Source: Aquificales bacterium (GTDB lineage: Bacteria; Aquificota; Aquificia; Aquificales; Aquificaceae). From it: a stretch of 24,000 nucleotides of DNA. The notes below the pieces were generated by a model that did no database searches, was not told where the DNA came from, and saw only the letters and a list, made by a program, of their open reading frames with translations. Position 1 is the stretch's first letter. Every line of letters starts with the position of its first letter. The DNA is taken from the NCBI GenBank assembly GCA_027037055.1, contig JALWBR010000018.1:13923-37922 (forward strand), read 5' to 3'. Shown here one piece after another: positions 2 through 24,000 of this stretch. The translations under genes and the position numbers were made by a program.

Positions 2-331
2 GACTTTGAAAGATGGATAAACGAACCTCATAAGGTTGTATTTCCGGAAGGGGAAAGTTTGAGAGATGTTTATAAAAGGGTGAGTGATTTTATTGAATAT
101 ATTAAAAAAAATTACAGGGGTAAAACCGTCTTGGCGGTATCCCATACCGTGCCTATAAGGTGTATGTACTGCGCGCTTCTCAATGTAGATCTGGCAAGAT
201 TTTGGGGATTCGGCTGTGACAATGCCTCTTACTCTACGGTGTTCATAGAAGATGACAGATCTGTAATAAACAGGTTAAATATTACATGTCATTTGGGGGA
301 ACTATATGTGGAAGCTCATCAGGCTCTTTAG
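2..331 (+). CDS. Histidine phosphatase family protein (phosphoglycerate mutase / CobC-like), C-terminal part; 5' end lies outside the window
   Basis: The frame is open from base 2 (DFERWINEPHKVVFPEGESLRDVYKRV...TVLAVSHTVPIRC...). The 'PEGES' and 'VSH' segments are typical of the C-terminal half of His-phosphatase superfamily enzymes. The TTG at 59 in the ORF track is only an internal codon. Confidence 0.7.
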   Translation, partial: DFERWINEPHKVVFPEGESLRDVYKRVSDFIEYIKKNYRGKTVLAVSHTVPIRCMYCALLNVDLARFWGFGCDNASYSTVFIEDDRSVINRLNITCHLGELYVEAHQAL

Positions 332-2867: not shown

Positions 2868-2868
2868 G

Positions 2869-3483
2869 ATGGAACAGCTTCTTGATTTTTTAAGTAAGGC
2901 GGGTTATGTAATCTATCCCCTTATAATACTTTCCATCTTCTCATGGTTCATCATAATTGAAAGGGCTTTTAACTTAAGGGCATCAAAATTTATTCCTAAG
3001 AATATAAACGATATTAAAAATCTTATCCACAGGGGTGACATAGACGGAGCGATGAAGCTGGCATCTTTAAGTCACGATCCTTTCAGCAGGGCATTAAGTA
3101 CGGTTCTTCAAGAGTATGAAAAGGGCAGGAGAAACAAGATACACCTAAGTCAGATTGCTGAAACAGAGCTTGTTTCCGTGGTCCCTCTTGTTGAAAAAAA
3201 TCTTCTCCTGCTGTCAGCCATTGCATCAATAGCCCCACTGCTTGGCCTTTTTGGAACAATAACGGGGCTTATAAAAGTATTTTCAGCCTTTGCAATCTCC
3301 GAAGCGGAGGAAGGAGTAACCCTCCTTGCCTCTGGAATAAGCGAGGCTTTAACGGCAGCGGCAGCGGGATTGATAGTTGCCATACCCGCCCTGTTCGCCT
3401 ATTGGATCTTCCGTGCTGTGGGCGATAAAATATTGGCGAAGATTGAGAATTCTTTTAAGGAAATACTGGAGATCTTAGAATGA
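2869..3483 (+). CDS. MotA/TolQ/ExbB proton-channel family protein
   Basis: 204 aa with three predicted TM segments. Family signatures are LLGLFGTITGLIKVF and GISEALTAAAAGLIVAIPALFAY. A GAGGTGA Shine-Dalgarno lies upstream of the ATG. Confidence 0.9.
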   Translation: MEQLLDFLSKAGYVIYPLIILSIFSWFIIIERAFNLRASKFIPKNINDIKNLIHRGDIDGAMKLASLSHDPFSRALSTVLQEYEKGRRNKIHLSQIAETELVSVVPLVEKNLLLLSAIASIAPLLGLFGTITGLIKVFSAFAISEAEEGVTLLASGISEALTAAAAGLIVAIPALFAYWIFRAVGDKILAKIENSFKEILEILE

Positions 3484-3881
3484 ATCTGCGGAAGGGAAGA
3501 AGACTATCAAGGGATGAGAGGGCTTACATAGATGTGGTACCCATAGTGGATATACTTCTCGCTGTTTTCCTTTTCTTGGCAATCCTTGCCTTCCAATCTC
3601 CCATGACCTTCATAGCGGTAAAGCTACCCTTTGCAGAACACGGCGAAAAGGGAGCCATAAGTATAATGAAGATACAAGTTACCGCTGACGGATCTTACAG
3701 AATGGGAGGAAAAAGGCTAAGCATATCAGAAATAGATAAAAGGATTAAAAAGGTAAAACCCACATCCATAATAATAGAGGCGGATGAAAGGGCTCAGCAC
3801 AAGTTTGTTGTTCAACTTATGGATATAGCGAAGAAAAATAAGGTGGAAGATCTCGTAATTGCAACAAGAACGAGAAGGTAA
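3480..3881 (+). CDS. ExbD/TolR family biopolymer transport protein
   Basis: 133 aa with an N-terminal IDVVPIVDILLAVFLFLAIL anchor typical of ExbD/TolR. ATGA start/stop overlap with the preceding gene. Confidence 0.85.
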   Translation: MNLRKGRRLSRDERAYIDVVPIVDILLAVFLFLAILAFQSPMTFIAVKLPFAEHGEKGAISIMKIQVTADGSYRMGGKRLSISEIDKRIKKVKPTSIIIEADERAQHKFVVQLMDIAKKNKVEDLVIATRTRR

Positions 3882-8763: not shown

Positions 8764-9440
8764 AATTCGGTGTTTGTGTATTTCCTGGTTCAAACTGCGA
8801 TTATGATACATACTATGTCATAAGGGATGTTCTTGAGAGGGATGTAAGATTTATTTATCACAATGAAACAAATATAAAGGACATAGATATTCTCATCCTT
8901 CCTGGGGGCTTCTCCTTTGGAGATTATGTAAGACCGGGTCTTCTTGCTTCTAAGACCGCTTTGATGGATGCGGTTATAGATTTTGCCCATAAAGGGGGTA
9001 TAGTGCTCGGTATATGTAACGGTTTCCAAATTTTAACAGAAGCGGGATTGCTTCCCGGAGCATTGCTCCCTAATGTAAACGGCAGGTTCATTTGCAAGGA
9101 TGTATATCTACGAATAGAAACAAAGTCAAGGATACTAACAAATAAATTAAAAAGAGGAGATGTATTAAGATTGCCCATAGCCCATCACGACGGCAGATAC
9201 TATGTTGATGATAAAACCCTAAAAGATATGGAAGAAAACGATCAGATAATATTCAGATATGCGGACAAGGAAGGAAACACGGATAACGGATCAAATCCCA
9301 ACGGTTCCGTCTCAAACATAGCGGGTATATGTAACAAAGAGGGAAATGTGTTTGGAATGATGCCCCATCCAGAAAGGGCATCCGAGGATGTTCTCGGAAA
9401 TCATGACGGACTCATGCTGTGGTATTCTCTTATTAGTTAA
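8760..9440 (+). CDS. purQ: Phosphoribosylformylglycinamidine synthase glutaminase subunit PurQ
   Basis: FPGSNCDYD, GGFSFGDY, nucleophile elbow GICNGFQ, and MPHPER. Confidence 0.93.
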   Translation: MKFGVCVFPGSNCDYDTYYVIRDVLERDVRFIYHNETNIKDIDILILPGGFSFGDYVRPGLLASKTALMDAVIDFAHKGGIVLGICNGFQILTEAGLLPGALLPNVNGRFICKDVYLRIETKSRILTNKLKRGDVLRLPIAHHDGRYYVDDKTLKDMEENDQIIFRYADKEGNTDNGSNPNGSVSNIAGICNKEGNVFGMMPHPERASEDVLGNHDGLMLWYSLIS

Positions 9441-10531
9441 TGGTTGAAGAATTCAAAGAAGCGGTTCAAAGAAGGAAGGCGAGGGTTGAAAGTTTTTTAA
9501 AGTGGGAATACCTCAGATTTTCCGATGATTTCAAAGATATTCCGAGGGGTACGGTCCTCTTCGGGAATGCAATTATATGGGGATATCCCCACATAGGTAG
9601 AATATTCAGGCTTGATAAGGGACTTAAAGAGCAATTTGAACATCCATTCTTTATTGAAGAAAAGGTGGACGGCTACAATGTAAGAATATTTGAACACGAC
9701 GGTGATATTGTAGCCCTTACGAGGGGAGGATATATATGCCCCTTTACCATAGACAGGATCCCTGAATTTTTAGACCTTCGTATTTTTGAAGAAAATCCGG
9801 ATATTATTATCTGCGGGGAAGTGGCGGGACCGGGTAATCCCTATATAGAAGAGAGTCCTCCCTTCATTAAGGAAGATGTACAGTTCTTCGTTTTTGACAT
9901 TATGAGTAAAAACAAAAGGGAGTTTTTGCCCTACACAAAGAAATTGGAGCTGATTAATAGGTATAACCTTCCCGCCGTTAAAACATACGGCAGATTTACA
10001 TCAGAGGATATACAAAAAATAAAAGAAATTCTCTTTAAGATGAATGAAGAAGGCAGAGAAGGTGTTGTTTTTAAAGAAGACTCGGAAAGGAACAAAAGGG
10101 TGAAATATGTAACAAGCAATGCAAACCTAAGCGATATAAGGGTAACGGCAAAAAACATGCTACAGCTACCCCCCGAATACTTTACGAACAGACTGCTCAG
10201 GCTCGTTCTTTTTATGGAAGAAGAGGGTATTGAAAAGACGGAAAAGTTATATAAAGATCTGGGTAAAGCCTTCATAGACGGACTATTTGACGCAATAGAA
10301 CAGTACAAAAAGGAACACAGAGTAAGCAGGAAGTTTTTATGTAAATTCAATAAAAAGGAAAATGCCCTCGCACTCATTGAACAGCTCAGCAGTGCTTCCA
10401 GACACATTCAGGTAATTCAAAATCGCTTGGAAAAAGAAGGAGATTATTACATACTTGAGTTTGAAAAGGTGTATCTGAACATGACGGGTTTCTTAGGACA
10501 TATACTAAGTGGCGGTCTTGTGTTTGATTAG
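9440..10531 (+). CDS. ATP-dependent RNA ligase, archaeal Pab1020 (Rnl3-like) family
   Basis: Nucleotidyltransferase motif [11 protein letters not shown] (KxDGxN), motif III FFVFDI, motif IV EGVVFK, motif V RVKYVT. The size (363 aa) fits the homodimeric Pab1020 type. TAATG overlap with the purQ stop. Confidence 0.85.
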
Positions 10532-11118: not shown

Positions 11119-12510
11119 ATGCGTGTGGTAATAGTGGGGAACGGTCCTGCCTCAGCTTCCGCTATAGAATCTTTCAGAGAAATAGATAAGGATTCGGAAA
11201 TAGTAGTCTTATCCGATGAAGAATTCCCTACCTATGCACCAAACTGTATGGAAAATGTGATAAGGAACGATATACAGGATAATGCACTTTTTTACAAAGG
11301 AGGGTTTGAGTTTTACGAAAGATACAAGGTTGATTTCAGACCAAAAAAGGAAGTAAAGGCGGTTGATACAAAAAGAAAGGTTGTTATAACTTCCGACGGG
11401 GATGAGATAGAGTATGATAAGTGCCTCTTAGCCGCAGGTGCTGACTCTTTTATACCTCCTATACAAGGTATTGAACTCGGCGGTGTAACAACCGCAAAGA
11501 ATCTGTACGATGCTTTAAAGATAAGAGAATGGATAAAAAGTGGAAAGATAAAAGATATAGTCATAGTAGGAGCGGGACCCATAGGTATTGAAGATGCGGA
11601 GACCCTCAAACATCTCGGATTTAATGTAACGGTAGTTGAAATATTTAACAGAGTCTTACCGAGAATGCTTGATAAGGACATGGCGGATATATACATGAAG
11701 TATCTGGAAGATCTGGGAATAAGATTCCTCCTTGAGCATCAGGTTACATCCATAGAAGGAAACAACTGGGTTGAGGGAGTAAGGGTAAAACCCATTCAAA
11801 GAGACAGGGAGATTTTCATAAAAGCGGACATGGTCATACTTTCTGTCGGCGTAAGACCCCGTACAAGGCTCGTTGAAAATACTGATATAAAAATACACAC
11901 GGATGAAAAGACGGGTAAACCGATGGGGGGAATATTAACCGATGAGTATCAAAGGACATCAAACCCCGATGTATATGCAGCGGGGGATATATGCTCATCA
12001 GTAGATGTCTTCGGTAATCACAGGTGGATAGCTTTATTCCCTGCAGCCCAGCAGGAAGGATATATTGCGGGGTACAATATGGCAGGATTGAGGGTAAAAA
12101 ATGAAGGAAGCGTTGATTACAATGCGGTAAAAACGAGAGAGGTTACAGCCGGTAGCGGAGGCATTTTCGGAGAGGATAAAGAAATTCTAAAGGTTGAATA
12201 TGATAATTATTTGATAAAAATATTCCTCAGCGAGGGTAGGATAACAGGTTATCAGTTTGTGGGTATACCCGCAAGTGAAGATATTAACAAGACAAATACC
12301 CTTCTCTATTCTCTTGTAAGGGAAGATTGGAAAAATACAGTAATATCAAGAAAGGGTATGGGACTGGAATCCTCGGGAGTGCTTATGCACAACTTCATAA
12401 GGAATAATAGAGTAGTAAACGAAACACATATAGATATAATAATGAAGGGAATACTAAGAGCCTTGGGAAGTACCGCCTTGGATACCCCCCTCTTCCGCAG
12501 AACTCTCTGA
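11119..12510 (+). CDS. FAD-dependent pyridine nucleotide-disulfide oxidoreductase (NADH oxidase / CoA-disulfide reductase-like)
   Basis: Rossmann motifs [13 protein letters not shown] (FAD) and [15 protein letters not shown] (NAD(P)H), YAAGDIC near the C-terminal FAD contact, and a single candidate redox Cys in YAPNCMENV. Confidence 0.85.
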
Positions 12511-13965
12511 TTCCATACCCGGTTTATATATAACTATTCTGTTCTTCCCCAACTTTTTAGCCCTGTAAAGGGCTATATCCGCCTCTTTTATAAGCGTATC
12601 AATATTATCAACATCCTCCCTGTAGGTTGATATACCGCCGCTCACCGTCGTAGATATATATTTGCCATTTACGGGAAACTTCTTTTGTTCAAAGATCTTC
12701 CTTATCCTCTCCGCAACTTGAAATCCACTTTCAGCATCACTATTCTGGAGAACAACAACAAATTCCTCACCGCCGAATCGTGAAACAATATCAGAGCTCC
12801 TTACATTGCTTTTAAGAATTTCCGCAAACTCCTTAAGGACCCTGTCACCCACATCATGACCGTAGTTATCATTTATGTGCTTGAAGTTATCTATATCAAA
12901 AACGACCAATGTAAAAATGTTACCGTACCTTTTAGCATTCTCTATAATCAGCTTTATATGTTCAAAGAAGAACCTCCTGTTATACAGACCAGTAAGGTGA
13001 TCAATATAGGCTATCTCCTGAAGTTTATCCCTTTCCGTTTTTATTTCCTCAATAAGATCTTTCAATCTCTCACCCATAAGCAAAATACTGTGTTTTAACA
13101 TATATATCTCATCCCTATTCTTTTCCCGCGCTATTTCCCTTTCAAGGGCTTCTATCTTTGAAAAATCCCCCCTTTGAAAGGATTCCGCGGTGTCCTTTAT
13201 AAGTTCTATCCCAGAAACAACCCTCCTTATAGTTAGATAAACGATAAAGCTTATAAGGAAGGTAAGAACAAAGTTGTAAAGGGTAAGCTTTATAAATTCC
13301 ACAATGTAACTTCTGTAAAGGGTCGCCATATCCTTGACTATTATTATTCTGCCCGCAGGTATCTCCCCCCTTATTAATATGGGAATATCCATTATGAACT
13401 TTTTATCGGGGAATTCTCCCACAATTCTGTAACCATCAATATCCATGTAATCCGTAAGGCTAAGGATTTCCGTGCTTGATGCATCTTCAACAAGAACCTT
13501 TTTAAAAACATATCTATCCTTTATGTAAATATCCTGAATACCATATTCCTTTAAAATGCCTTCAATAAATTTTTTATCATAAATTATCATCCAGTCAATA
13601 TCTTCAACAAGCTTGATCAGATCAAGAATATCCGCAAGGTGAGAATAAACGAGATAACATCCCTCTTTTTTAGTCACATAAAATCCCACAACCGTACCTT
13701 CATTTGTAAGATCGTAAACCTTAAATTTGTTCTTACACCTATCTTCACTGACCTTCAATAAAGATCCGGGTCCTGCGGTCTCTTTAAGACGGGATATTTC
13801 AAAATCCTCAAAGGTTTTATATAGGGAGTGTATTCTTTTGAAGTTGGTACTTATCTCTCCTTCCAGATTGTTTCTTAGTTGGATAAAGTTAAATATACCT
13901 ATGGTTACAACTATTAGAATTGAAACAATCAAAATACTTAAAAATATCCTCTTTTTCAGGGTCAT
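12454..13965 (-). CDS. Membrane-bound diguanylate cyclase (2 TM + periplasmic sensor + linker/coiled coil + GGDEF with I-site)
   Basis: Catalytic FDIDNFKHINDNYGHDVGD and GGEEF, with an RSSD I-site 5 residues upstream of GGEEF. TM helices lie at about aa 14-36 and 237-262 of the long ORF. The maximal ORF starts at 13989 (MTELYNYMM...). I favour the second of the tandem ATGs (13965, MTLKKRIF...) because of the -10 element geometry. ATG 13968 is also possible. Confidence 0.9.
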   Translation of the reverse strand: MTLKKRIFLSILIVSILIVVTIGIFNFIQLRNNLEGEISTNFKRIHSLYKTFEDFEISRLKETAGPGSLLKVSEDRCKNKFKVYDLTNEGTVVGFYVTKKEGCYLVYSHLADILDLIKLVEDIDWMIIYDKKFIEGILKEYGIQDIYIKDRYVFKKVLVEDASSTEILSLTDYMDIDGYRIVGEFPDKKFIMDIPILIRGEIPAGRIIIVKDMATLYRSYIVEFIKLTLYNFVLTFLISFIVYLTIRRVVSGIELIKDTAESFQRGDFSKIEALEREIAREKNRDEIYMLKHSILLMGERLKDLIEEIKTERDKLQEIAYIDHLTGLYNRRFFFEHIKLIIENAKRYGNIFTLVVFDIDNFKHINDNYGHDVGDRVLKEFAEILKSNVRSSDIVSRFGGEEFVVVLQNSDAESGFQVAERIRKIFEQKKFPVNGKYISTTVSGGISTYREDVDNIDTLIKEADIALYRAKKLGKNRIVIYKPGMESESSAEEGGIQGGTSQGS

Positions 13966-13970
13966 CATAT

Positions 13971-13982
13971 AATTATATAATT
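13971..13982. promoter_or_regulatory. 12-bp perfect palindrome AATTATATAATT providing -10 boxes for both nadD and the diguanylate cyclase gene
   Basis: Plus strand: TATAAT (13976-13981), 6 nt, then nadD ATG 13988. Minus strand: TATAAT (13977-13972), 6 nt, then ATG 13965 (or 3 nt to ATG 13968). Confidence 0.45.
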
Positions 13983-13987
13983 CGGTC

Positions 13988-14581
13988 ATGATACTATTCT
14001 TTGGCGGTAGCTTTGATCCGATTCACAACGGACATCTTATTCTCGCGGAGGATGTCAGGGAAAAGCTGGGATTTAAAAAGGTAATTCTTATTCCCGCAAA
14101 CATATCGCCCCTCAAAGGAAGATATGTAGCACCACCCGAGCACAGGATACGCATGATAGATATATCAATAAGGAACCTTGAAAACTTTGATGTTGACCTT
14201 TGGGAGATAAAGGCAGGCGGAGTTTCTTACACAATAAATACAATAAAGTACATTAAGGAAAAGTACGGTAATAAACCCTACATGCTTGTCGGAGCGGACA
14301 GTATGCTAAGCTTTGACAAATGGAAGGATCCGGAAAAAATCCTTAAAGAAAGCTGTATAGTTATTATGGAAAGGGAAGGAAAACTTCCCTTGGTGGAAAG
14401 ATTTATGACAGAGAAATTTCCGTCCTTTAAAGAAGGCAAGGATTATTTAATAGTAAAAACCAGGCGTATAGATATATCTTCCACTGAAATAAGGGAAAGG
14501 GTAAAAAGGGGACTTCCTATAAGAGGGATGGTACCCGTGGAGGTAGAGACTTATATAAAAGAAAAGGGTCTTTATAAATAA
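13988..14581 (+). CDS. nadD: Nicotinate-nucleotide adenylyltransferase
   Basis: FFGGSFDPIHNGHL (HxGH) at the N-terminus and ISSTEIRERV (ISSTxxR) near the C-terminus. 197 aa. Confidence 0.93.
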   Translation: MILFFGGSFDPIHNGHLILAEDVREKLGFKKVILIPANISPLKGRYVAPPEHRIRMIDISIRNLENFDVDLWEIKAGGVSYTINTIKYIKEKYGNKPYMLVGADSMLSFDKWKDPEKILKESCIVIMEREGKLPLVERFMTEKFPSFKEGKDYLIVKTRRIDISSTEIRERVKRGLPIRGMVPVEVETYIKEKGLYK

Positions 14582-14875
14582 CTACTGTGTCTCACTTATT
14601 TCCGTTATCCTTATACCTATCTTATCTCCCACTATAACCATCTCCCCTTTGGCAATAGGCACACCGTTAACCTTAACATCTATGGTGTCACTTATGTTCC
14701 TTTCAAGCTCTATAACGGAACCAGCCTGCAGATTTATAAGATCCCGTACAAGAATGGTAGCCTCTCCCAAAGAACCTTCTATCTTCATTGGGATATCATG
14801 AAGTTTCTCGCATTTCTCCAATTCACATAAATTGTGCTCTTCCCTTTTTTCTTCTCTCCCTTGACCGTTTTCCAT
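14582..14875 (-). CDS. fliN: Flagellar motor switch protein FliN (minimal SpoA-domain form)
   Basis: SpoA domain LGEATILVRDLINLQAGSVIELERNISDTIDVKVNGVPIAKGEMVIVGDKIGIRITEI. I chose the start at ATG 14875 (97 aa) because GAAGGAGA lies 7 nt upstream and it forms a TAATG overlap with the fliF stop. The longer ORF start at 14896 has no SD. Confidence 0.88.
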   Translation of the reverse strand: MENGQGREEKREEHNLCELEKCEKLHDIPMKIEGSLGEATILVRDLINLQAGSVIELERNISDTIDVKVNGVPIAKGEMVIVGDKIGIRITEISETQ

Positions 14876-16398
14876 TATCTTGTCTCCTTCAACCATGATT
14901 TGATAATCTTGGCAACCTTGTTAGGCTCTTCCTTCGCTATATTGGTTATAGTATCTATTACTATAACCTCCTTTGCCTTTTCCCTTATAGCCTCAAGGCC
15001 CGCAACACTTTCAAGCTCTCCAGCAGTGGGTACCTTGGCAGGAGTAGGCGGAGCTTCAACAGTAACCCTCTCCCTTCTTCCCAATCTTCTCATCAAAATA
15101 ACAAAAGCTATAAAAGCAAGCAAAGCCATAAAGGCATAAACGCCCCATCTTATATATTCGGAGTAATCAACATATTCAACAAACTCGGGTTTTTGAAAGG
15201 GAACGGAAACTATGGATATCTTGTCTCCCCTTTCCATGTTAAGCCCTGCAGCGGCTACAATCATATCCTCAAGCTTTTTCAAATCCACATCCTTCTCAGC
15301 ATTCTTGTCTATAAGAACACCCACACTTATCCTCTTTATCTTCGGTGCATAGTCCGCCGTATAGATCTCCTTTTTACTCACCTCAAAGTTTGTTGTAACT
15401 TCACTTTTCTCCGTATTTATAGTCCCACCGCCCCCTACACCTGCCCCCGGCGGTATATTTGCGGTTGCACCCGGGATACCACCTATACCCGTACCCATTG
15501 TTCTCTCTTTCCTTTTCTGTTGACTGACAACAGCAGTCATGTCTGGATCATATATCTCTTCCTTCTTCTCCATTTTTGTAAAGTCCATCTCCGCGGATAC
15601 GACAACCTTAACCTTGTCATAGCCTATGGTTTCGGAAAGGGCTTTCAAAATCTTCTTTTCCAATTTCCTTTCAAACTCAGAAACTATCTTCAACTGCTTC
15701 TCACTAACGCCTTTAAATTCGTCTCCCTCATCAAGGAGGGCTGTAAGGTCCCTGCCCCTGTCGTCAATTATAACCACATTGGAAGGTTTAAGTCTTTCAA
15801 CACTTGATGCTACAAGATTTCTGATGGCTATAATCTGTTCACGGGTAATATCCGTACCAGGCTTAAGCTTTATAAAGACGGAAGCGGAAGGTTCTTCTTC
15901 CTCCCTTAGGAATATTGATTTTTCTGGTATGGCTATATGCACCCTTGCATCGGTAATGTTCTTTATTCTTAGAATAGTTCTGACAAGTTCTCCCTCTATA
16001 GCCCTTTTGTAATTTACCTGTTGTTGAAAATTTGAAATACCTATCCCCGTTTTATCAAAAATCTCATAACCTATTATGCCCTTACTGGGAATACCCTTTG
16101 CACTGAGCTTAAGCCTTATATCTCTTACCTGACCTTCCGGAACGAGAACGGTCCTCCCATCCTTCCCTATCTTATACTTAACTCCTTCCTTATCCAGTTC
16201 CGTTAAGATAGCTACCATATCCTCTTGACTGAGACCAGAGTAAAGGATTGAGTAGCTGGGCTGGGCTAAATAAACGGAAGCAACCCCAAGAATTATAATA
16301 AGACCGAGGGCGGAAGCTATTATCAAAAACTTTTGTGTCGTAGGAAGCTGTTTAAACCTTTCTACTAAGCCCCTTATACTTTCCCTTACATCAGCCAT
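14875..16398 (-). CDS. fliF: Flagellar M-ring protein FliF
   Basis: 507 aa. N-terminal TM, YscJ/FliF ring-building domains (LYSGLSQEDMVAILTELDKEGVKYK...), second TM (VYAFMALLAFIAFVILM) and a charged C-terminal tail. Confidence 0.93.
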   Translation of the reverse strand: MADVRESIRGLVERFKQLPTTQKFLIIASALGLIIILGVASVYLAQPSYSILYSGLSQEDMVAILTELDKEGVKYKIGKDGRTVLVPEGQVRDIRLKLSAKGIPSKGIIGYEIFDKTGIGISNFQQQVNYKRAIEGELVRTILRIKNITDARVHIAIPEKSIFLREEEEPSASVFIKLKPGTDITREQIIAIRNLVASSVERLKPSNVVIIDDRGRDLTALLDEGDEFKGVSEKQLKIVSEFERKLEKKILKALSETIGYDKVKVVVSAEMDFTKMEKKEEIYDPDMTAVVSQQKRKERTMGTGIGGIPGATANIPPGAGVGGGGTINTEKSEVTTNFEVSKKEIYTADYAPKIKRISVGVLIDKNAEKDVDLKKLEDMIVAAAGLNMERGDKISIVSVPFQKPEFVEYVDYSEYIRWGVYAFMALLAFIAFVILMRRLGRRERVTVEAPPTPAKVPTAGELESVAGLEAIREKAKEVIVIDTITNIAKEEPNKVAKIIKSWLKETR

Positions 16399-16399
16399 A

Positions 16400-16690
16400 T
16401 TAAACCTGCATCCTCTGAAGTTCCTGGAATGCCTCTAAAAGCTTATTTCTTATTTGAATCAAAAGATTTAGTGCCAATGAAGCCTTCTCAAATTCTATTA
16501 TGGCAGAATGAAGGGGAATATTCTCCCCCCTTAAGATAGCTGATTTTATCTCTTTTGACTTTAACTGTTGCCTATTTACCCACTCTATAAAGGAAGATAA
16601 TTGCTTAGCAAAGTCATCCCCCTTTCCTTGTTTAATATCATTTCCCTTTATGTGCTTTAATGGTAAAGAAGGAAAATCTCTTATCTCCAT
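16400..16690 (-). CDS. fliE: Flagellar hook-basal body complex protein FliE
   Basis: The C-terminal FEKASLALNLLIQIRNKLLEAFQELQRMQV matches the conserved FliE C-terminus (..VRNKl..AYqEimrMqv). Confidence 0.88.
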   Translation of the reverse strand: MEIRDFPSLPLKHIKGNDIKQGKGDDFAKQLSSFIEWVNRQQLKSKEIKSAILRGENIPLHSAIIEFEKASLALNLLIQIRNKLLEAFQELQRMQV

Positions 16691-17094
16691 AGTTCTAATG
16701 TCCTCTCCGCCATTTCCCTTGTCATATTAAAAGCTGTCATATTTGCCTCATAACTCCTTATTGCGGATATCATGTTTGCCATCTCCTTTGCAAGATCAAT
16801 GTTAGGTTTCATAACATAACCTTCCTCATTGGCCATGGGGTGGTCGGGATCATAAACCATTCTGAAAGGTTCATCTGATTCTATTATACCTTCAACCCTT
16901 ACCGGTATCTCTCCCCTTTCCTTAGATTTTGGATCCTCAACAGCCCTGAATACAACCTCCAACCTTCGGAAAGGTACACCTTCCTCCGTATAAGAGTCAT
17001 AATTTGCCAGATTTGAGGCTATGGTGTTCATCCTTATCCTCTGGGCGTACATACCAGATGCACTTATATTGAATGCGTTAAATACATCATTCAT
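16681..17094 (-). CDS. flgC: Flagellar basal-body rod protein FlgC
   Basis: ISASGMYAQRIRMNTIASNLANYDS at the N-terminus and AIRSYEANMTAFNMTREMAERTLEL at the C-terminus. Confidence 0.93.
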   Translation of the reverse strand: MNDVFNAFNISASGMYAQRIRMNTIASNLANYDSYTEEGVPFRRLEVVFRAVEDPKSKERGEIPVRVEGIIESDEPFRMVYDPDHPMANEEGYVMKPNIDLAKEMANMISAIRSYEANMTAFNMTREMAERTLELWR

Positions 17095-17471
17095 CTTCTA
17101 CCCTCCTTGATCACATTTTCCAATTTCCTCAAATATCCCGTTGCCATCTTCATATAAGTTTCATAAGCCAATCTGTTTTTTACCATCTTTGCCATCTCCT
17201 CTTCTATACTCACATTATTTCTATCGTTACCTACAAGGCCCCTGTTAATCTCAATAACTTTAAAACTACTTCCCTCACCTGACCCGTCCAAGTGCTTCGC
17301 CCTTGTTTTTTTCAATTTAAGTACTTTTCCCAATTCTCTGCGGAATATAACATCCTTTGCCCTGTAACCCGGCGTATCCGCATTGGCTATATTGCTGAGT
17401 ATAACCTTATGCCTTAACCATGTATAATTTAAAAAGGGTTTAAGCTCGTCCGCCCCTTTAAATATGTCCAT
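17091..17471 (-). CDS. flgB: Flagellar basal-body rod protein FlgB
   Basis: LSNIANADTPGYRAKDV rod-protein N-terminal motif. 126 aa. GGGGGT SD 5 nt upstream. ATGA overlap with flgC. Confidence 0.92.
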   Translation of the reverse strand: MDIFKGADELKPFLNYTWLRHKVILSNIANADTPGYRAKDVIFRRELGKVLKLKKTRAKHLDGSGEGSSFKVIEINRGLVGNDRNNVSIEEEMAKMVKNRLAYETYMKMATGYLRKLENVIKEGRR

Positions 17472-17474
17472 AAT

Positions 17475-19253
17475 TTACCCCCACAAGGCTTTTATAGCCT
17501 CACTCCATATATTATTAGTCTCCGAAGCCTTTTTGACAACCCATTTTAAAAGTTCCTTGTCCTTTCTTATCTCACCTATCCTACCCATCTGAAATATAGC
17601 CCACCAGAAATAGGGATCCCTATTATCACCCTTATGTTCAATAAACTTTCTGTAATATTTTTCCGCCTCCGCGTATTTTTTCATATCAAAATATTTATCC
17701 CCCAACCTCAACAAAGCATATTCCTTCATAAAATCCATTCCTTTTACCTTCTCCGCCTCCTTAAGGAATGCCTTATAGCTCTTTAGGTCATCACCTATGT
17801 AAGCAACAAGAAATAATGCCCTCACCTTATGGGTACCATCTATACCCTTGATAGATGCCTTTAACAGCCTAAGACTCCTCTTTCTATCACCTTTAAGAAA
17901 TGCATAAATACCTTCTATATAGCTCCTTAAATATTTGTTACTCAACTCTTTTGATAGTGAAACAGCCTCCTCATCACCCGTATTAAGTAGTGCAAGAACG
18001 GTTATCTCTTTCTGTTTATCCTTCCAGAATATTTCCTTAACATTGTTTCTATTAGTCTTGTAAAGATCAACTATCAATAAGCTATCTTTACGAGGAGATA
18101 GGGACTCATAAACACCATGAAGCAATCGGATTTCCTTTGTTTTATTAGCTATGTCTTCCCTGTAAACATTTTTAACCTTTAAAACCTCCCTATCCCCTTC
18201 ATCAATATGTTTTTCTTTAAGGATCAGGTAATAAATGCCGAGAAGGGGAAGTATGCTTCTTTTCTCCTCTATATTAAGCCATACTATATCCCTAAGTTTT
18301 GACCTGTAATCCTTAAAAAACTCATTGTAGGTTTGAAGAAAATCGTAATACATCCATAAAGAGGAAAATATGGCTTGGGCTGTTTTACTTGATAGAAGCG
18401 TGTTTTCATCCGCATACTTCTTTATTTTCTCAAAGGCATCCTTGTAATTTTTATTATCCAGATATATAAAAATTAAATACATATTTATCTTGTCCGTATA
18501 TTCACCGTAATAATCCTTCCTTGACGCTATTTCCAAATAAAGGGTCGCCTTTTTTATATCACCCGTTCTGTAGTAAGAGGCTCCGAGTCTGTATAAAAAA
18601 GCGGGATCATTCTCAAGATACGGGTTTATGCTTCTTGCAATGGAAAGATACTCCACAGCCTTTTTATACTCTTCAATATTGAACATAAAATAGCCGAGAA
18701 CCGTGTAGTAAAGATCCTTTATATCTTTAATATCTTCCTCTTTAAGTCTGAGTACCCGGGTGTATCCTTCCATACTGTCCATAACCGCGGAAGAGAGGGC
18801 AAACTTAATGAGATATTTGGGACTTCCTTTCTCCTTGTAAAGGGTGTCGTAAACAGCTTTGGCTTTCTCATACCAGCCTATCATGTAGTAGCAGTCTCCC
18901 AAAAACTCCCTTTGTAGCAAGGGAAATCTCGGAGTCTTATATTCATAAAAATATTTATTTAAAAAGGCAATGGCGGATCTTATACCGCTCCTGTGACCGG
19001 TGGAATAAAAATATAGGGCGTAGGCTTTTCCCAAATAAAGGTAGGATAGTTCTCCGTAATAGCTTTCCGGAGCAGTGGAATATAGGGAAGAAAAGATATT
19101 TATAGCGCCTATGTAGTCTCCGACTGACAGGCTTTTAACCCCATCATTAAAAAGGGCTTTAAGATTCTCCTTCCCCCTAAGCTCACTATTAAAGGAGTAG
19201 GCTGAAATCAGTACTATCAGAAACAGAGGAAGTCTTCTTACCAGCGATTTCAT
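17475..19253 (-). CDS. Secreted TPR-repeat protein (592 aa), periplasmic scaffold candidate
   Basis: Signal peptide MKSLVRRLPLFLIVLISAYS. TPR-like units throughout (GDYIGAINIFSSLY, GWYEKAKAVYDTLY, GDIKKATLYLEIA, KNYKDAFEKIKKY, KKYAEAEKYYRKFIE). Its stop lies 3 nt before the flgB start. Confidence 0.8.
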   Translation of the reverse strand: MKSLVRRLPLFLIVLISAYSFNSELRGKENLKALFNDGVKSLSVGDYIGAINIFSSLYSTAPESYYGELSYLYLGKAYALYFYSTGHRSGIRSAIAFLNKYFYEYKTPRFPLLQREFLGDCYYMIGWYEKAKAVYDTLYKEKGSPKYLIKFALSSAVMDSMEGYTRVLRLKEEDIKDIKDLYYTVLGYFMFNIEEYKKAVEYLSIARSINPYLENDPAFLYRLGASYYRTGDIKKATLYLEIASRKDYYGEYTDKINMYLIFIYLDNKNYKDAFEKIKKYADENTLLSSKTAQAIFSSLWMYYDFLQTYNEFFKDYRSKLRDIVWLNIEEKRSILPLLGIYYLILKEKHIDEGDREVLKVKNVYREDIANKTKEIRLLHGVYESLSPRKDSLLIVDLYKTNRNNVKEIFWKDKQKEITVLALLNTGDEEAVSLSKELSNKYLRSYIEGIYAFLKGDRKRSLRLLKASIKGIDGTHKVRALFLVAYIGDDLKSYKAFLKEAEKVKGMDFMKEYALLRLGDKYFDMKKYAEAEKYYRKFIEHKGDNRDPYFWWAIFQMGRIGEIRKDKELLKWVVKKASETNNIWSEAIKALWG

Positions 19254-20499
19254 GCCTTATACTCTCTCTATCCCTGTCTCCCTTTTTATTGTAATTTAAC
19301 GGTTTTTCGGACTTTGATATAATCTGCCATCCGTTAACACTTAGCATCTCAAGATCAAATCCTATGATATGAAGCCTTTCCGAGAGCCTTATCTTATCAA
19401 GAAAAGATATATTCTCAGGAACAAGATTTTCAGATCTAACAGATACAGACAGCTTTTCCCTCTCAACCCTTAAGACTATGTTTATATCCTCAGTCTTCAA
19501 ATGAACCCTCTTCGGCTTTGAAATGTTGTTTGTTTCATATTCAGAAATGTCTATAGTTTGCCTTACCTCCGCCACATCCTCAAACTGTTTTATTTCCTCC
19601 TTCCCGCCTCCTGTCTTATGAAGATGATAAACATCCCTTATATCCTCTCTCTTAACAGGTCTTTCAACTTCAGCACTTACTGATTCGGTAACATAATCAC
19701 CCTTCGCATATACCTTTGTCTTCAGCTTAACATCATTAGCATTACCGCCACCATCAACGTGTTTCTTAATAAATTCCCTGGACTCTCCTTTTTCATTAAT
19801 GGGTTCCTTTTCAAATTCAAGGTGTATATTACCCTTTGCCTTACTAAAACCCTCTCTTGAGGGTGAAACCTCTCTTTTATACTCGGATTTTACATCATAA
19901 GGTTGCTTTTGAGGTAGCATATCCTCCTTTAGAAAACCTATATCCCCCTTCTCATTATTCTCTTTCTCTCCATACACTTCCCTTCTTAATATCTCCCCCT
20001 TAATTTTCTCCATTTCGTAGGGTTTAACATCCTTTACATTACTCTTAAGAGCCTCAAATACAGGCTTATCTGTTAAAGATATCTTCTGAACAGCACTTCC
20101 AATGTTCTTTTCCACCTTTTCTGTATTAACACTTAAAATTAATTCCGTCTTACCAGTTTCACTTTGAGGTTTACTTTTATTTTCTTCTGGTTTCTCGCCA
20201 TCAGTAATGTTTTCAACCTTCACATATTTAATATCACCGATAGGTAATACATTTCCTTGTAGTACATTGACGCTCTTTTTCTCTGTATCGTCCTTCTCAG
20301 AATTTACACTATCCAGTATATGCAAACCATCTCCTTTTCTCTCCTCTTTGATACCCCCCATAATCTGGGTTATAATTTCCGAAAATTCCATATACTCACC
20401 ATTTTGTTCCTCAGACTTGGGGGTTAAAAGATCTAATATATCCTCCCCCTTTTTTCCTTTTATACCCCACAAGAATACAGGTAATCCGAATCCGTTCAC
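19189..20499 (-). CDS. Glu/Lys-rich hypothetical protein (436 aa) with a possible FliK-like (hook-length control) C-terminal domain
   Basis: GTG start in a GTGA overlap with the glycosyltransferase stop. An alternative start is ATG 20391. The long low-complexity charged middle and the C-terminal segment RVHLKTEDINIVLRVEREKLSVSVRSENLVPENISFLDKIRLSERLHIIGFDLEMLSVNG follow the alternating pattern of Flg_hook domains but lack the usual P..LG. The functional call is weak. Confidence 0.55.
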   Translation of the reverse strand: MNGFGLPVFLWGIKGKKGEDILDLLTPKSEEQNGEYMEFSEIITQIMGGIKEERKGDGLHILDSVNSEKDDTEKKSVNVLQGNVLPIGDIKYVKVENITDGEKPEENKSKPQSETGKTELILSVNTEKVEKNIGSAVQKISLTDKPVFEALKSNVKDVKPYEMEKIKGEILRREVYGEKENNEKGDIGFLKEDMLPQKQPYDVKSEYKREVSPSREGFSKAKGNIHLEFEKEPINEKGESREFIKKHVDGGGNANDVKLKTKVYAKGDYVTESVSAEVERPVKREDIRDVYHLHKTGGGKEEIKQFEDVAEVRQTIDISEYETNNISKPKRVHLKTEDINIVLRVEREKLSVSVRSENLVPENISFLDKIRLSERLHIIGFDLEMLSVNGWQIISKSEKPLNYNKKGDRDRESIRHEIAGKKTSSVSDSTDFSLLL

Positions 20500-22349
20500 T
20501 TAGAATAGTATATTCCTTCTTTTTTAGCTTTCAAGTACTTTGAAATTCCGTGCTGAGTCTTATACCAGTAAAAGGGTCTTTTTATAAGCTCATAAAGGGC
20601 TATGTAAGCTGATAAGGAATGAAGATACCAATAAAGAGGAATGAGTATAGAAAAAGGTAACAGGTTGTAATATCCCCTCCTCAACAAACCGATAGCATGC
20701 AAAACAATACCCATACCGTTTCCGATCACAAATGTGTATAAGGATATTGTCTTTACATCAAAGGCGGGTGATACAAATAGAGAAAAAAGCATAACAAAGG
20801 GATGGGCAAGGAATATAAAGGGAGTCCCGCCTATGAGCAGAAAGAGGGTCAATAATCCCCTCACACCCGTGTGTTTATATAGATAACCCATATTCCTTGA
20901 GTGGACAAGAAAAGTTTGCATATAACCCTTAATCCATCTGGATCTTTGCTTAATCCAGTTCTTCAAACGGGCATTTGCCTCTTCATAGGTCGTTGAGTTT
21001 ATAAATCCCACCCTGTACCCCTTAACCGCAAATCTTATTCCGAGATCTGCATCTTCCGTTGTATTAAAGGGATCCCAACCTTTTACTCCATCAAGCTTAC
21101 TCCTGTCAAAGTGATTACTTGTACCACCGAGGGGAATGGGAAATCCAAGTTTAACAAGACCCGGTATCATACAGTCAAACCAAAAGCTGTATTCAAGTGT
21201 AAATAGTTTGGTTAAAAGGTTTTCATCCCTGTTGTAGAAGTTAAGCTTGGCCTGTAAACATGCTGTATCCCCTCTACACTTTTCAAAATTAGCAAGGGCG
21301 AGCCTCAATTGATCGGGTTCCGGTATGTCTTCCGCATCGTATATCGTTACATACTTTCCCCTTGCAAAAAATAACCCGTAATTACATGCCTTAGGTTTTG
21401 TCTTAGGCATACTTGCAGGGACTATAACAAACCTCCAGTTATAAGGGGGATTATACCTTTTTGCACTTACAAGGGTCTCATAATCATCCTCTTCAAGGAT
21501 GAGTATGATGTCAAGCTTGTGTTGAGGATAATCAAGTCTCTTTAAAGCACTTATAAGATTTCCTATAACCTCCTTCTCCCTGTAAAGGGGTAAAAGTATG
21601 GTATAAACCGGATACTCATCCCTTTTATTTTCACCTATCTTTACCCTGTTTCCGCAGGAAGAAATAAGACCCGCTAAGCTTACAAAAAGTTTAAAAGCTA
21701 TGGCTGAAATGTAAAATACCTGCATTGCAATGAACATACCCGTTGAAGAACGGGAAGGATATAAAATAAGGGAAAGGATAATTAACAGGCCCACGGTAAG
21801 GAAAAACATCTTTTGTTTCTTTGAAATAACAAGGCTCGCTGATAAATTTTCACTTTCCCTTTTAAGGGAAGAAACAGCAAAATCCATAAGTTCTCTGTGA
21901 AAAACGCTTTGAATGATCCTTTGTAGATCGTTATCGGATATAAGTTTTAAATCAACACGGTTAAACACATACTTATGCTTTAGCTTCTTTGTAATAAACC
22001 TTAAGTCAAGATTTTCCCTCGGATAGGATGTTGCAACAATAAGTGTGTCATCTTCAATCCTTAAAGGTATACACTGATTATCCCATATCTCCTTCGGAGA
22101 AAATATCTTTATTAAACCGATATCCAATTCATTAATTGAGGGTGAAAAGAACCCTATACCGTATTGCTGTGATAGGGCGGTATATAACTCCCTTTTGTTT
22201 ATGTAGCCGAGAGATAGTAATATCCAGCCTATTCTACCACCGAATCTTCTCTGATAGTCAAGGGCATATTTAAGTTGTGTCTCACTTATAACACCGCTCT
22301 CAACCAGTATCTCCCCTATCCTTAAGGTGGCAGTTAAAACTCCGCCCAT
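20496..22349 (-). CDS. Membrane-embedded processive family-2 glycosyltransferase (exopolysaccharide synthase) with an N-terminal MshEN/T2SSE_N c-di-GMP receptor domain
   Basis: Residues 10-33 (RIGEILVESGVISETQLKYALDYQ) and 39-62 (RIGWILLSLGYINKRELYTALSQQ) fit the MshEN 24-mer motif. Two TM helices lie at about aa 181-230. GT2 core: YTILLPLYRE, LEEDD, KPKACNYG, DAED (338-341), TED (431-433), QRSRW (468-472). Further TM helices run to the C-terminus. Confidence 0.9.
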   Translation of the reverse strand: MGGVLTATLRIGEILVESGVISETQLKYALDYQRRFGGRIGWILLSLGYINKRELYTALSQQYGIGFFSPSINELDIGLIKIFSPKEIWDNQCIPLRIEDDTLIVATSYPRENLDLRFITKKLKHKYVFNRVDLKLISDNDLQRIIQSVFHRELMDFAVSSLKRESENLSASLVISKKQKMFFLTVGLLIILSLILYPSRSSTGMFIAMQVFYISAIAFKLFVSLAGLISSCGNRVKIGENKRDEYPVYTILLPLYREKEVIGNLISALKRLDYPQHKLDIILILEEDDYETLVSAKRYNPPYNWRFVIVPASMPKTKPKACNYGLFFARGKYVTIYDAEDIPEPDQLRLALANFEKCRGDTACLQAKLNFYNRDENLLTKLFTLEYSFWFDCMIPGLVKLGFPIPLGGTSNHFDRSKLDGVKGWDPFNTTEDADLGIRFAVKGYRVGFINSTTYEEANARLKNWIKQRSRWIKGYMQTFLVHSRNMGYLYKHTGVRGLLTLFLLIGGTPFIFLAHPFVMLFSLFVSPAFDVKTISLYTFVIGNGMGIVLHAIGLLRRGYYNLLPFSILIPLYWYLHSLSAYIALYELIKRPFYWYKTQHGISKYLKAKKEGIYYSK

Positions 22350-23134
22350 AACGATAAAAACCCTCCTTCAGATTTACCCGTGTTCAAACCGTACAAGGTT
22401 TTTATAAACCCAATAAAAAGGGAGTAATTACCTGCCCTTATGCGCGGGCCTATGTAAAGATTAAGCAGTTCAAAGCTATCGGGTACAAATACATTGGGAA
22501 CTATATTAAGATTGGTTTCCGCTGTCCTTTGGAAATCAAGGGTGCCTATGAGCTGAAATCCCTTACCAATATTACCACCCAAGGTAAGATAAGAAGAAGA
22601 GATACTAAGCACCACATCTGTGTACTTTCTGTAACCGAAACCGCTATCAACAAACACCCATTTATTGGAATAACCTCCCAAAAGACCCACCTCAAAGGCG
22701 TAACTTCCGTAGCCTATAATCGGTTCAATGCTTGTGCTGTAGTTCCAAGGGATTATAAATTTTCCATAAAGGGAAAATACAAAGGGGTCGTAATAAACAA
22801 AACTGCCTATTATTCCCACCTCTATATCCTGAAGGTTTCCGTTGTATTTTTCCCCGCAGGTTATGAGGGTAAGGGGTACTTTAAATATTAAAGTGGCCCT
22901 ATCGCTCAACCCGTATTCACTGTAACCTATGAGATCATGTTTTGTATATGAACATTCAAGTTTTTTCTCTTTACCGTACTTATCAAAGTATGAGTTTGCT
23001 GTAAGAAAAAAATAGGTAAGGGAAAAGAAGTAATGGTTCTTTTTACGGAGCCATGCGGAAGCTTCCGCCTCTTTAATTGTAACAAATATAAGTAAAACTA
23101 CTATACAACGCCCGAACCCCTTCCGGCTTTTCAT
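22334..23134 (-). CDS. Outer-membrane beta-barrel protein (266 aa), candidate polysaccharide export porin
   Basis: Signal peptide with an AEA/SA cleavage-like site. Alternating hydrophobic/aromatic beta-strand pattern throughout. C-terminal ...GFLSLWAEF ends in Phe, as in OMP sorting signals. AAGGAAGGT SD 7 nt upstream of the ATG. 16-bp overlap with the synthase gene. Confidence 0.7.
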   Translation of the reverse strand: MKSRKGFGRCIVVLLIFVTIKEAEASAWLRKKNHYFFSLTYFFLTANSYFDKYGKEKKLECSYTKHDLIGYSEYGLSDRATLIFKVPLTLITCGEKYNGNLQDIEVGIIGSFVYYDPFVFSLYGKFIIPWNYSTSIEPIIGYGSYAFEVGLLGGYSNKWVFVDSGFGYRKYTDVVLSISSSYLTLGGNIGKGFQLIGTLDFQRTAETNLNIVPNVFVPDSFELLNLYIGPRIRAGNYSLFIGFIKTLYGLNTGKSEGGFLSLWAEF

Positions 23135-23232
23135 TTATATTACCTTCCTTATTTGAAAGTTATTTATTTCATGTTAATATATTACGGTCTTACCGAAAGG
23201 CAATATTGATTATTTCCACACTCAAAATATCT

Positions 23233-23238
23233 TAAAAT
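23233..23238 (+). promoter_or_regulatory. -10-like TAAAAT 8 nt upstream of the prfB ATG
   Basis: TAAAAT (23233-23238), then ACTGTGTC, then ATG 23247. There is no SD-like purine run before the ATG. Confidence 0.35.
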
Positions 23239-23246
23239 ACTGTGTC

Positions 23247-24000
23247 ATGATTGAAACACTTGAGGAAAGGTTTGAGGAAATAAGAAAGGTAATAAATATT
23301 GATGAGCTTAAGAAGGAGCTTGCAGATCTTGATAAGAAGATGTCCGAGCCGAATTTTTGGGAAGATCAAGATAAGGCAAGGGAAGTTATAAAGAAAAGGA
23401 AATGGATAGAGGGTACACTTAAGACGGTAGAGGAGATAGAGGAATCCCTCAGGGATTTAAGGGAATTACAAGAGATGGCGGAAGAGGATCCAGAAGCACG
23501 GGAGATGTTTTTGCAAGAATTGAATTCGGTTGAAAAAAAGATAAGGGATATGGAGATAAAGACGCTCCTTTCTGAGGAGATGGATGAAAAGGATGCTTAT
23601 CTTACTGTACAGGCGGGTGCTGGAGGGACGGAAGCATGTGACTGGGCGGAGATGCTTTTAAGGATGTATATGAGGTGGGCTGAGAAACACGGATATGAAA
23701 TTGAAGTCATAGATACAACACCCGACGATGTTGCGGGTATAAAGAGTGCAACCATCCTTATAAAGGGACCTTACGCCTACGGTTATTTGAAGGGGGAAAC
23801 TGGGGTACACAGGCTTGTCAGAATTTCACCTTTTGACGCCAACGCACGGAGACACACATCCTTTGCATCCGTATCAGTAACCCCGAGGATAGATGAAAGC
23901 ATAAAGGTGGAGATAAGGGATGAAGATATAAAGATGGAAACCTTCAGGGCTTCCGGAGCGGGCGGGCAGTATGTAAACAAAACGGATACCGCGGTGAGAT
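23247..24000 (+). CDS. prfB: Peptide chain release factor 2, 5' part (3' end outside the window); single uninterrupted frame
   Basis: My own translation from ATG 23247 gives [25 protein letters not shown]...[12 protein letters not shown]...[22 protein letters not shown]...[19 protein letters not shown]. The SPF tripeptide identifies RF2 and GGQ is the peptidyl-tRNA hydrolysis motif. The gene is absent from the ORF track, presumably because no stop codon falls inside the window. Confidence 0.93.

Follow-up and report, generated by a model that had tools for sequence, protein, structure and literature searches.

A probable lineage-specific insertion of an exopolysaccharide synthase pair ahead of the flagellar operon of an Aquificales bacterium

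The window analysed here is a 24,000-nucleotide stretch of an Aquificales genome (assembly GCA_027037055.1, contig JALWBR010000018.1, positions 13,923 to 37,922 of the forward strand). It is AT-rich (~40% GC) and densely coding. Positions 14582–23134 carry nine consecutive minus-strand open reading frames (ORFs). In the direction of transcription, the first two encode a putative outer-membrane protein (OMP) and a family 2 glycosyltransferase (GT2) of the kind that synthesizes exopolysaccharide (EPS); the next two encode a 436-aa protein and a tetratricopeptide repeat (TPR) protein; the last five are flagellar genes. An earlier, sequence-only reading described the nine as one gap-free unit that joins EPS synthesis to flagellar assembly. 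Its nine-gene layout, its list of junctions and the 112-bp region in front of the OMP gene are all reproduced base by base. Comparison with related loci, which are designated by L numbers, shows that the block is composite. The features and junctions are as follows, numbered along the window.

23135–23246: 112-bp divergent intergenic region upstream of the OMP gene; a release-factor gene (plus strand) starts at 23247.
22334–23134, minus strand: OMP gene (266 aa), putative small beta-barrel exporter, partner of XagB-type synthases.
20496–22349, minus strand: GT2 synthase gene (617 aa), XagB-family processive GT2 with N-terminal MshEN domain and transmembrane segments.
22164–22322, minus strand: MshEN motif pair (53 residues), RIGEILVESGVISETQLKYALDYQ, RRFGG, RIGWILLSLGYINKRELYTALSQQ; regular-expression match to the published 24+5+24 motif.
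20507–20534, minus strand: sigma-70-like element TTGAAA-16-TATACT, candidate ancestral flagellar promoter.
19189–20499, minus strand: 436-aa gene with GTG start, uncharacterised Aquificota family.
17475–19253, minus strand: TPR gene (592 aa), secreted all-alpha protein with TPR Pfam matches.
17091–17471, minus strand: flgB (proximal rod); TIGR01396, E = 3.4e-25, 88.8 bits against a cut-off of 59.
16681–17094, minus strand: flgC (proximal rod); TIGR01395, E = 1.2e-49, 168 bits against a cut-off of 102.
16400–16690, minus strand: fliE; TIGR00205, E = 1.6e-20, 73 bits against a cut-off of 30; also PF02049.
14875–16398, minus strand: fliF (MS ring); TIGR00206, E = 9e-94, 315 bits against a cut-off of 130.
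14582–14875, minus strand: fliN (C-ring); TIGR02480, E = 1.4e-25, 89 bits against a cut-off of 84; longest ORF from 14896.
OMP/GT2 junction: 16-bp overlap.
GT2/436 junction: GTGA, 4-bp overlap.
436/TPR junction: 65-bp overlap.
TPR/flgB junction: 3-bp gap.
flgB/flgC junction: ATGA.
flgC/fliE junction: 10-bp overlap.
fliE/fliF junction: 1-bp gap.
fliF/fliN junction: TAATG if fliN starts at ATG 14875; 22-bp overlap with the longest ORF.

FlgB, FlgC, FliE, FliF, and FliN all exceed the curated NCBIfam cut-offs. The start of fliN is probably ATG 14875, given the Shine–Dalgarno sequence GAAGGAG ahead of it and the same layout in L089. Pfam and NCBIfam profile searches return no match for the OMP or the 436-aa protein. 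The 112-bp region contains the Shine–Dalgarno sequence of the OMP gene (AAGGAAGG) and a sigma-70-like element, TTGCCT-16-TATATT, on the minus strand (23203..23176). No c-di-GMP riboswitch or other Rfam RNA element is found in this leader or elsewhere in the window.

The GT2 protein is a full-length member of a very large and widespread family, some members of which are named XagB by JGI. It matches the Pfam families Glyco_trans_2_3 (E = 1.7e-23) and MshEN (E = 2.9e-8), and its N-terminus matches the NCBIfam c-di-GMP_motif NF053729 (E = 6.7e-18, 64 bits against a cut-off of 38). The MshEN motif of 24 residues occurs in two exact copies, at residues 10–33 and 39–62, with a 5-residue spacer between them, in the 24+5+24 arrangement that has been defined structurally as a c-di-GMP-binding motif (PMC5013675). 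The processive-synthase motifs DAED338, TED431, and QRSRW468 are present and invariant over 19 homologues. The protein is 52–53% identical to its Aquifex and Hydrogenobacter homologues and 38–47% identical to those of Xanthomonas and Mariprofundus and to many further homologues. Compared with L001, the gene has a ratio of nonsynonymous to synonymous substitution rates (dN/dS) of 0.07 at a dS of ~0.5. Purifying selection, together with intact catalytic and MshEN motifs, indicates that GT2 is functional and not a decaying passenger. Post-translational gating of this synthase by c-di-GMP, as the sequence-only reading proposed, is a reasonable expectation from the intact motif pair; as the sole account of one nine-gene operon, it fares less well below.

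The OMP has a signal peptide and ends in ...LWAEF. It is 29–39% identical (E = 1e-29 to 1e-47) to the products of 252–263-aa genes directly upstream of GT2 at five other Aquificota loci. These orthologues also have signal peptides, and all of them end in the aromatic residue F, as outer-membrane barrels do. Homologues of the OMP adjoin XagB-family GT2 genes in distant phyla too. The OMP is a putative beta-barrel, and probably the dedicated export partner of GT2.

At the other Aquificota loci, the pair belongs to a larger module. In L081, L083, L085, and L086 (Aquifex pyrophilus, Hydrogenobacter thermophilus, and two further assemblies), the order is a BcsB-like gene, a ~255-aa OMP gene, GT2, and a gene for a ~470-aa protein. 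The BcsB-like protein often carries a SPOR domain, and the ~470-aa protein has no Pfam match. In L002, the BcsB-like, OMP, and GT2 genes are followed by convergent unrelated genes, with no ~470-aa gene. An Aquificota Xag-like module is thereby clearly defined, as a by-product, as BcsB-like protein, OMP, MshEN-GT2, and ~470-aa protein. No flagellar operon accompanies any of these five synthase loci; in L086, only a FlgA-chaperone gene lies on the opposite strand, ~6 kb downstream. The BcsB-like gene of the five modules is absent at the window locus, and so is the ~470-aa gene. Three correspondences between the modules and the window were considered and rejected: the 436-aa protein has no similarity to the ~470-aa downstream protein, the TPR protein has no similarity to a 363-aa downstream protein of Hydrogenobacter, and the TPR protein does not match the BcsB-like/SPOR protein of L002.

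The other half of the block is conserved as a unit of its own. We examined 22 loci with an orthologue of the TPR gene, 19 of which include downstream sequence. In all 19, which are all Aquificota loci, flgB follows the TPR gene directly, within a few bases, and is followed by flgC, fliE, and fliF. The TPR protein has 21 full-length orthologue clusters (34–95% identity), all from Aquificota where the source is named. In 14 of the 22 loci, the gene that immediately precedes the TPR gene encodes the C-terminal domain of the 436-aa family; orthologues lie, for example, at 8683–10065 in L088, 8656–9942 in L089 (428 aa), and 8998–10065 in L090. In a distant Aquificota group (L106–L108 and L110–L114; for example L114, 4752–5885), the gene directly upstream of the TPR-flgB operon, on the same strand, is tgt, which encodes the housekeeping enzyme queuine tRNA-ribosyltransferase. 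The tgt gene is packed equally tightly, and the 436-family gene is absent from these loci. This synteny indicates that the 436-aa and TPR genes are members of the flagellar operon, of which they form the conserved 5' end, and not EPS genes. A grouping of both with the EPS half is contradicted by their association with flgB.

The start of the TPR gene at 19253 is supported by the conserved N-terminus of its product. Its first codons, which encode the signal peptide, share 65 nt (19189–19253) with the 3' end of the 436-aa gene, in a different reading frame. An overlap of 59–68 nt is seen in most loci (L088, L090, L092, L102, L104, L105, and others), and it persists between lineages whose proteins share only ~35% identity. 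The AlphaFold2 (AF2) model of the TPR protein is an all-helical solenoid with a pLDDT of 91, in which residues 1–24 have low confidence, consistent with a signal peptide. A Foldseek search with this model returns, at rank 4, a 773-residue chain from the flagellar periplasmic scaffold of Campylobacter jejuni (9hmf_K, E = 6.8e-7). Generic eukaryotic TPR proteins score equally in the same search, and the TM-scores are low (0.2–0.3). The fold match does not discriminate, and the flagellar role is argued by synteny only. On that ground, the TPR protein is probably a periplasmic flagellar accessory protein.

The adjacency of the two halves has a narrow distribution. GT2 lies upstream of the TPR-flgB operon in only 3 of the 22 loci, namely L087, L001, and L101, whose TPR proteins are 98, 95, and 84% identical to that of the window. 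The adjacency is absent from L089 and from 18 further TPR-flgB loci. Among 80 genomes with an XagB-family GT2, flg genes are nearby in L001 only, and the other 79 are without them. The arrangement is thus confined to the shallow clade of heat-loving Aquificota to which the window belongs (TPR identity of at least 84%). The sequence-only reading held that absence of the adjacency from all related genomes would point to chance juxtaposition, and absence outside one shallow clade is largely what we observe.

The nearest relative outside the clade is L089, whose TPR protein is 64% identical. Its flanks match those of the window clade (release factor-obg-ferritin on one side, nadD-GGDEF-Pyr_redox-PIN_5-RNA ligase on the other), and the OMP-GT2 pair is missing; its 428-aa gene directly follows the release-factor gene. 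By alignment, the ~35 nt of the window nearest the release-factor gene are homologous to the intergenic region of L089, and the DNA just before the 436-aa start is homologous to that same, single intergenic region. Judged by parsimony over all outgroups, the most likely event is that the OMP-GT2 pair was inserted in the ancestor of the window's clade. The composition of the pair is not anomalous (GC 0.37–0.39, as in the flanks). A duplication of the promoter on both sides of the insert was tried and rejected, as the sequences upstream of the OMP and 436-aa genes score 11 against each other, compared with 11.3 ± 1.9 for shuffled sequence.

Directly in front of the 436-aa gene lies the sigma-70-like element TTGAAA-16-TATACT, which matches the consensus at 10 of 12 positions and ends 7 nt before the GTG. 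Its hexamers, their spacing, and the distance to the start codon are identical in the window (20507..20534), L087, L001, and L101, even though the 16-nt spacer varies. At the corresponding site in L089, the intergenic DNA reads TTGCAC-16-TATACT. In the window, the element lies within the last codons of GT2; in L001 and L101, the -10 hexamer is non-coding. That the -10 hexamer is conserved in L001 and L101, where it encodes nothing, is the strongest argument for a promoter at this site. Furthermore, every one of the nine genes except the 436-aa gene has a Shine–Dalgarno sequence 5–12 nt upstream, and the lack of one before the 436-aa gene fits a transcript that starts at or beside its GTG. The 112-bp region had been called the only obvious promoter space of the block; that description does not account for this conserved candidate, which in L089 is intergenic.

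The same comparison bears on the GTGA junction. In L001 and L101, GT2 ends in ...KYLKA, its stop codon falls within the promoter spacer, and a gap of 23 nt separates it from the 436-aa gene. In the window and L087, the stop codon (GCT TAA/TGA) has become GCT AAA, and nine extra codons run through the -10 hexamer to the TGA of the GTGA (20496–20525 in the window, compared with 1215–1262 in L001 and 1085–1134 in L101). The GT2 tail that follows HGISKY is not conserved; it has 12 aa in the window, 6–8 aa in homologues, and 5 aa in L001 and L101. The loss of the stop codon and the non-conserved tail indicate that the GTGA overlap, which resembles translational coupling, is a recent accident.

The relatives of Hydrogenivirga type have a different element in front of the same early flagellar operon, a sigma-28-like ATTATAACA-N11-12-GCCGAT[A/T], at about 8640–8675 in L088, 5645–5680 in L092, and 5520–5555 in L093. 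It looks as if the promoter type of orthologous operons has switched between this sigma-28-like form and the sigma-70-like TTGnAn-16-TATACT of the window clade and L089. A scan of the window finds no convincing sigma-54 or sigma-28 motif inside the nine-gene unit, and sigma-28-like sites turn up only in the relatives of Hydrogenivirga type.

We consider it likely that the block arose by a lineage-specific insertion of the OMP-GT2 pair before an ancestral flagellar operon that retained its promoter, with read-through possible. One unit would be the ancestral operon, which comprises the 436-aa and TPR genes, flgB, flgC, fliE, fliF, and, in this branch, fliN, and which appears in relatives alone behind a short divergent intergenic region. 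The other unit would be the OMP and MshEN-GT2 genes, the two-gene core of the Aquificota Xag-like module for synthase-dependent EPS. The pair would have entered the intergenic region between the release-factor gene and the flagellar operon, the only non-coding space there, just upstream of the flagellar promoter. The sequence comparison shows that the -35 and -10 hexamers and their distance to the GTG of the 436-aa gene have stayed intact, that GT2 first ended in the spacer, and that its stop codon was lost later in the window. The OMP and GT2 genes may be transcribed from their own promoter in the 112-bp region, and some read-through into the flagellar genes is likely, as no terminator lies downstream of the pair. 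The flagellar genes would keep an independent start, probably with a leaderless transcript from the GTG, and the output of the synthase would be set post-translationally by c-di-GMP binding to MshEN. With separate promoters and MshEN control, transcribing the two halves together would bring no conflict of regulation, and the polymer would need no role specific to the flagellum.

Several observations weigh against this interpretation. The promoter before the 436-aa gene is a candidate defined by consensus match and conservation, not a mapped start. Promoter-like sites show no excess over shuffled sequence (25, compared with 28.4 ± 3.8). The -35 hexamer coincides with conserved GT2 codons (Y-L-K), and protein constraint could explain part of its conservation; the conserved block could also serve translation initiation rather than transcription. 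The BcsB-like and ~470-aa genes are absent at this locus, and the clade may carry them elsewhere. The choice between insertion in the clade and precise deletion in L089 is made by parsimony alone. Finally, the arrangement has persisted through a dS of ~0.5 and down to a TPR identity of 84%, which is compatible with selection for linkage and is not proof of it.

The first alternative is that all nine genes form a single operon, transcribed solely from the 112-bp region, in which the conflict between matrix production and motility under c-di-GMP is solved post-translationally by MshEN. The nine genes lie on one strand with no convincing terminator between them (12 terminator-like sites in the unit, compared with 9.1 ± 3.0 in shuffled sequence, none of them at a gene junction), the MshEN motif pair is intact, and the arrangement is kept in four assemblies of the clade. 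However, a conserved promoter-like element stands directly before the 436-aa gene, which has no Shine–Dalgarno sequence, and the flagellar part is a stand-alone operon in all relatives. In addition, gap-free junctions carry little information in this genome. Of the 17 junctions in the rest of the window, 14 measure at most 6 bp, and at this rate eight tight ones would follow one another with a probability of ~0.2. Nor is tightness limited to related genes or to one strand: the unrelated same-strand pairs purQ/RNA ligase and coaD/rsmD have junctions of -1 and -8 bp, the convergent nadD/fliN pair (13988–14582 region) has 0 bp between the genes, the convergent Pyr_redox/GGDEF pair overlaps by 57 bp (12454–12510), and the divergent GGDEF/nadD pair overlaps by 2 bp, with overlapping start codons. 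The packing of the block is ordinary for this genome. As there is almost no intergenic DNA, promoters must often sit within neighbouring genes, and the abutting or overlapping convergent pairs leave no room for conventional terminators. A single operon is thus unlikely. Of the earlier description, the tight packing stands, and its status as a special feature does not. Co-transcription is likewise accepted in part: the shared strand and the lack of a terminator make read-through possible, but the internal promoter candidate and the restricted adjacency argue against one obligatory transcript.

A second alternative is that the linkage is ancestral and that L089 lost the OMP-GT2 pair by deletion, which would make the EPS-flagellar operon older than it looks. 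L089 keeps homologous DNA on both sides, and a clean deletion and an insertion cannot be separated by sequence alone. Against a deletion, GT2 is beside the operon in none of 18 outgroup loci (Hydrogenivirga-type, L090, and tgt-type), and the GT2 modules of outgroups, where seen, are complete four-gene modules elsewhere. A deletion would also have to leave a working promoter built from GT2 tail codons. We regard this history as improbable.

A third alternative, also raised in the sequence-only reading, is an adaptive linkage with a flagellum-associated polymer, such as a glycan of a sheath, basal disk, or collar. The persistence of the linkage through a dS of ~0.5, with GT2 under purifying selection, and the presence of a secreted TPR protein between the halves are in keeping with such a role. 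Yet the TPR and 436-aa genes travel with flgB (19/19) and not with the synthase (3/22 loci), and flagellar genes do not adjoin the orthologous OMP-GT2 modules of other Aquificota or those of ~79 further genomes. XagB-family clusters have been tied to biofilm EPS and to stalks (PMC3609779, PMC4643136, PMC8250860), and in Xanthomonas oryzae pv. oryzicola, deleting xagA or xagB singly had no significant effect on swimming motility (PMC3609779). We find no support for a flagellar glycan of this kind, and it is very improbable. The last alternative, that the 436-aa and TPR proteins are EPS export components like AlgK, BcsC, and PgaA in a four-gene EPS module, draws on the TPR protein typical of synthase-dependent systems and on weak NCBIfam matches of the TPR protein to BamD, PrsT, PilW, and BcsC-type TPR models, but it is scarcely credible, as those matches are all far below cut-offs, both genes have orthologues without a nearby synthase in 18 loci, flgB always follows the TPR gene where downstream sequence is present, and no TPR gene occurs in the Xag-like modules of Aquificota.

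Deliberate co-expression of a matrix synthase and the flagellar core would have challenged the logic that separates motile from sessile life; the evidence indicates the ordinary explanation, namely the insertion before a flagellar operon that kept its promoter. Where genes leave almost no DNA between them, promoter regions are the only places in which a translocated pair of genes can settle, and the pair then looks fused to the operon next to it. In ultra-compact genomes, gap-free same-strand packing should be taken as weak evidence of a functional operon.

The two genes at the head of the flgB operon deserve attention of their own. An exhaustive profile search finds 26 representatives of the 436-aa family, of 133–657 aa, with the conserved ~100-aa domain always at the C-terminal end. 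Many members have an N-terminal FEEVLL-like motif (F-x-x-h-L-L type), a variable low-complexity linker, and a conserved terminus, DFSLLL. The 436-aa gene evolves fast, with a dN/dS of 0.33 and 74% identity of its product, compared with 93–100% for the neighbouring proteins. Its layout resembles that of FliK, in which a short N-terminal motif is likewise followed by a linker of variable length, a conserved domain of ~100 aa, and a tail whose extreme C-terminus is conserved; FliK's own N-terminal motif, D-F-L-A-L-L, can be likened to the F-x-x-L-L-type motif of the family. A study of Aquifex FlhB reports the absence of an identifiable fliK gene from the Aquifex genome (PMC3708937).

Homology to FliK is not demonstrated by any of the profile, PDB, structure, or hhalign comparisons. 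The 436-aa protein has no Pfam match to the Flg_hook or T3S4 domains at E values up to 10, Pfam and NCBIfam searches with 24 members of the family give no FliK match, and profile searches of the PDB with the family give 0 matches. The AF2 model of the C-terminal domain has a pLDDT of 45, and a Foldseek search with this low-confidence model returns nothing below E = 0.19. Alignment of the family by hhalign gives E = 0.23 with E. coli FliK and E = 0.088 with a C-terminal FliK profile of seven species (plasmid and megaplasmid records). The FliK-like architecture is a resemblance only, a lead and not a finding. That the 436 family is the 'missing' hook-length ruler of Aquificota, as a FliK analogue or an extremely diverged FliK, and that the TPR protein is at the same time a periplasmic motor scaffold or assembly factor, is a tentative suggestion. 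If it were true, read-through from the c-di-GMP-gated EPS module into this operon in the window's clade would give early flagellar genes a second transcriptional input peculiar to that lineage. The pair of conserved, unannotated genes that head the flgB operon bears on the control of hook assembly in a phylum reported to be without fliK.

Other genes of the window are worth recording. Two genes downstream of fliN (12454–13989, minus strand) lies a gene for a GGDEF diguanylate cyclase (511 aa) whose N-terminal part is a long sensor region. The GGDEF gene is also present in L089, which has no synthase, and it is therefore not evidence of a dedicated local signalling pair. At 306–3881 (plus strand), a gene for an 853-aa TPR protein precedes an ExbB/TolQ-like and an ExbD/TolR-like gene, and the two junctions measure 1 and -4 bp; the trio looks like a Tol/Ton-type energising cluster. 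A Pab1020-type RNA ligase gene (RNA_ligase and Lig_C; 9440–10531, plus strand) lies 1 bp from purQ and converges, with a 27-bp overlap, on a PIN_5 ribonuclease gene.

The synthase half of the locus has known counterparts. The GT2 belongs to the same family as the synthases of the Xanthomonas xagABCD cluster and of the xag-like/sfz-sfb clusters of stalk-forming iron oxidisers. XagB-family clusters are tied to biofilm polysaccharide in Xanthomonas and have been proposed to act in stalk formation in iron oxidisers (PMC3609779, PMC4643136, PMC8250860). The iron-oxidiser clusters have a BcsB-like gene beside the synthase, as do the Aquificota modules elsewhere. In contrast to the xag clusters, the window has the OMP and GT2 genes only, without BcsB-like or ~470-aa partners and with a flagellar operon behind them. 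NfrB and NfrA of E. coli likewise combine a c-di-GMP-activated processive GT2, fused to an MshEN receptor, with an outer-membrane partner (PMC8669469), and the N-terminus of the window's GT2 matches the MshEN region of NfrB (NF008411, E = 6.5e-13). However, the GT2 does not qualify as an NfrB equivalog, with 47.9 bits where the cut-off is 1170, its MshEN domain is N-terminal whereas that of NfrB is C-terminal, and NfrA is unrelated to the 266-aa OMP.

The flagellar half has counterparts as well. The Bacillus fla/che operon starts with the same order of flgB, flgC, fliE, and fliF, with translationally coupled junctions. Unlike operons of the Bacillus type, the Aquificota version is preceded by a secreted TPR protein (592 aa here) and, in most lineages, by a fast-evolving 296–657-aa protein ahead of the TPR gene; in the window's branch, fliN directly follows fliF, with no fliG between. 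The TPR protein, a secreted solenoid encoded with flagellar genes, may be compared with the PflA/PflB-type TPR proteins of the Campylobacter periplasmic scaffold and with the TPR collar proteins of spirochaete motors, although sequence similarity is lacking. The locus would thus be a known kind of EPS synthase pair, placed beside a known kind of flagellar operon by a clade-specific rearrangement.

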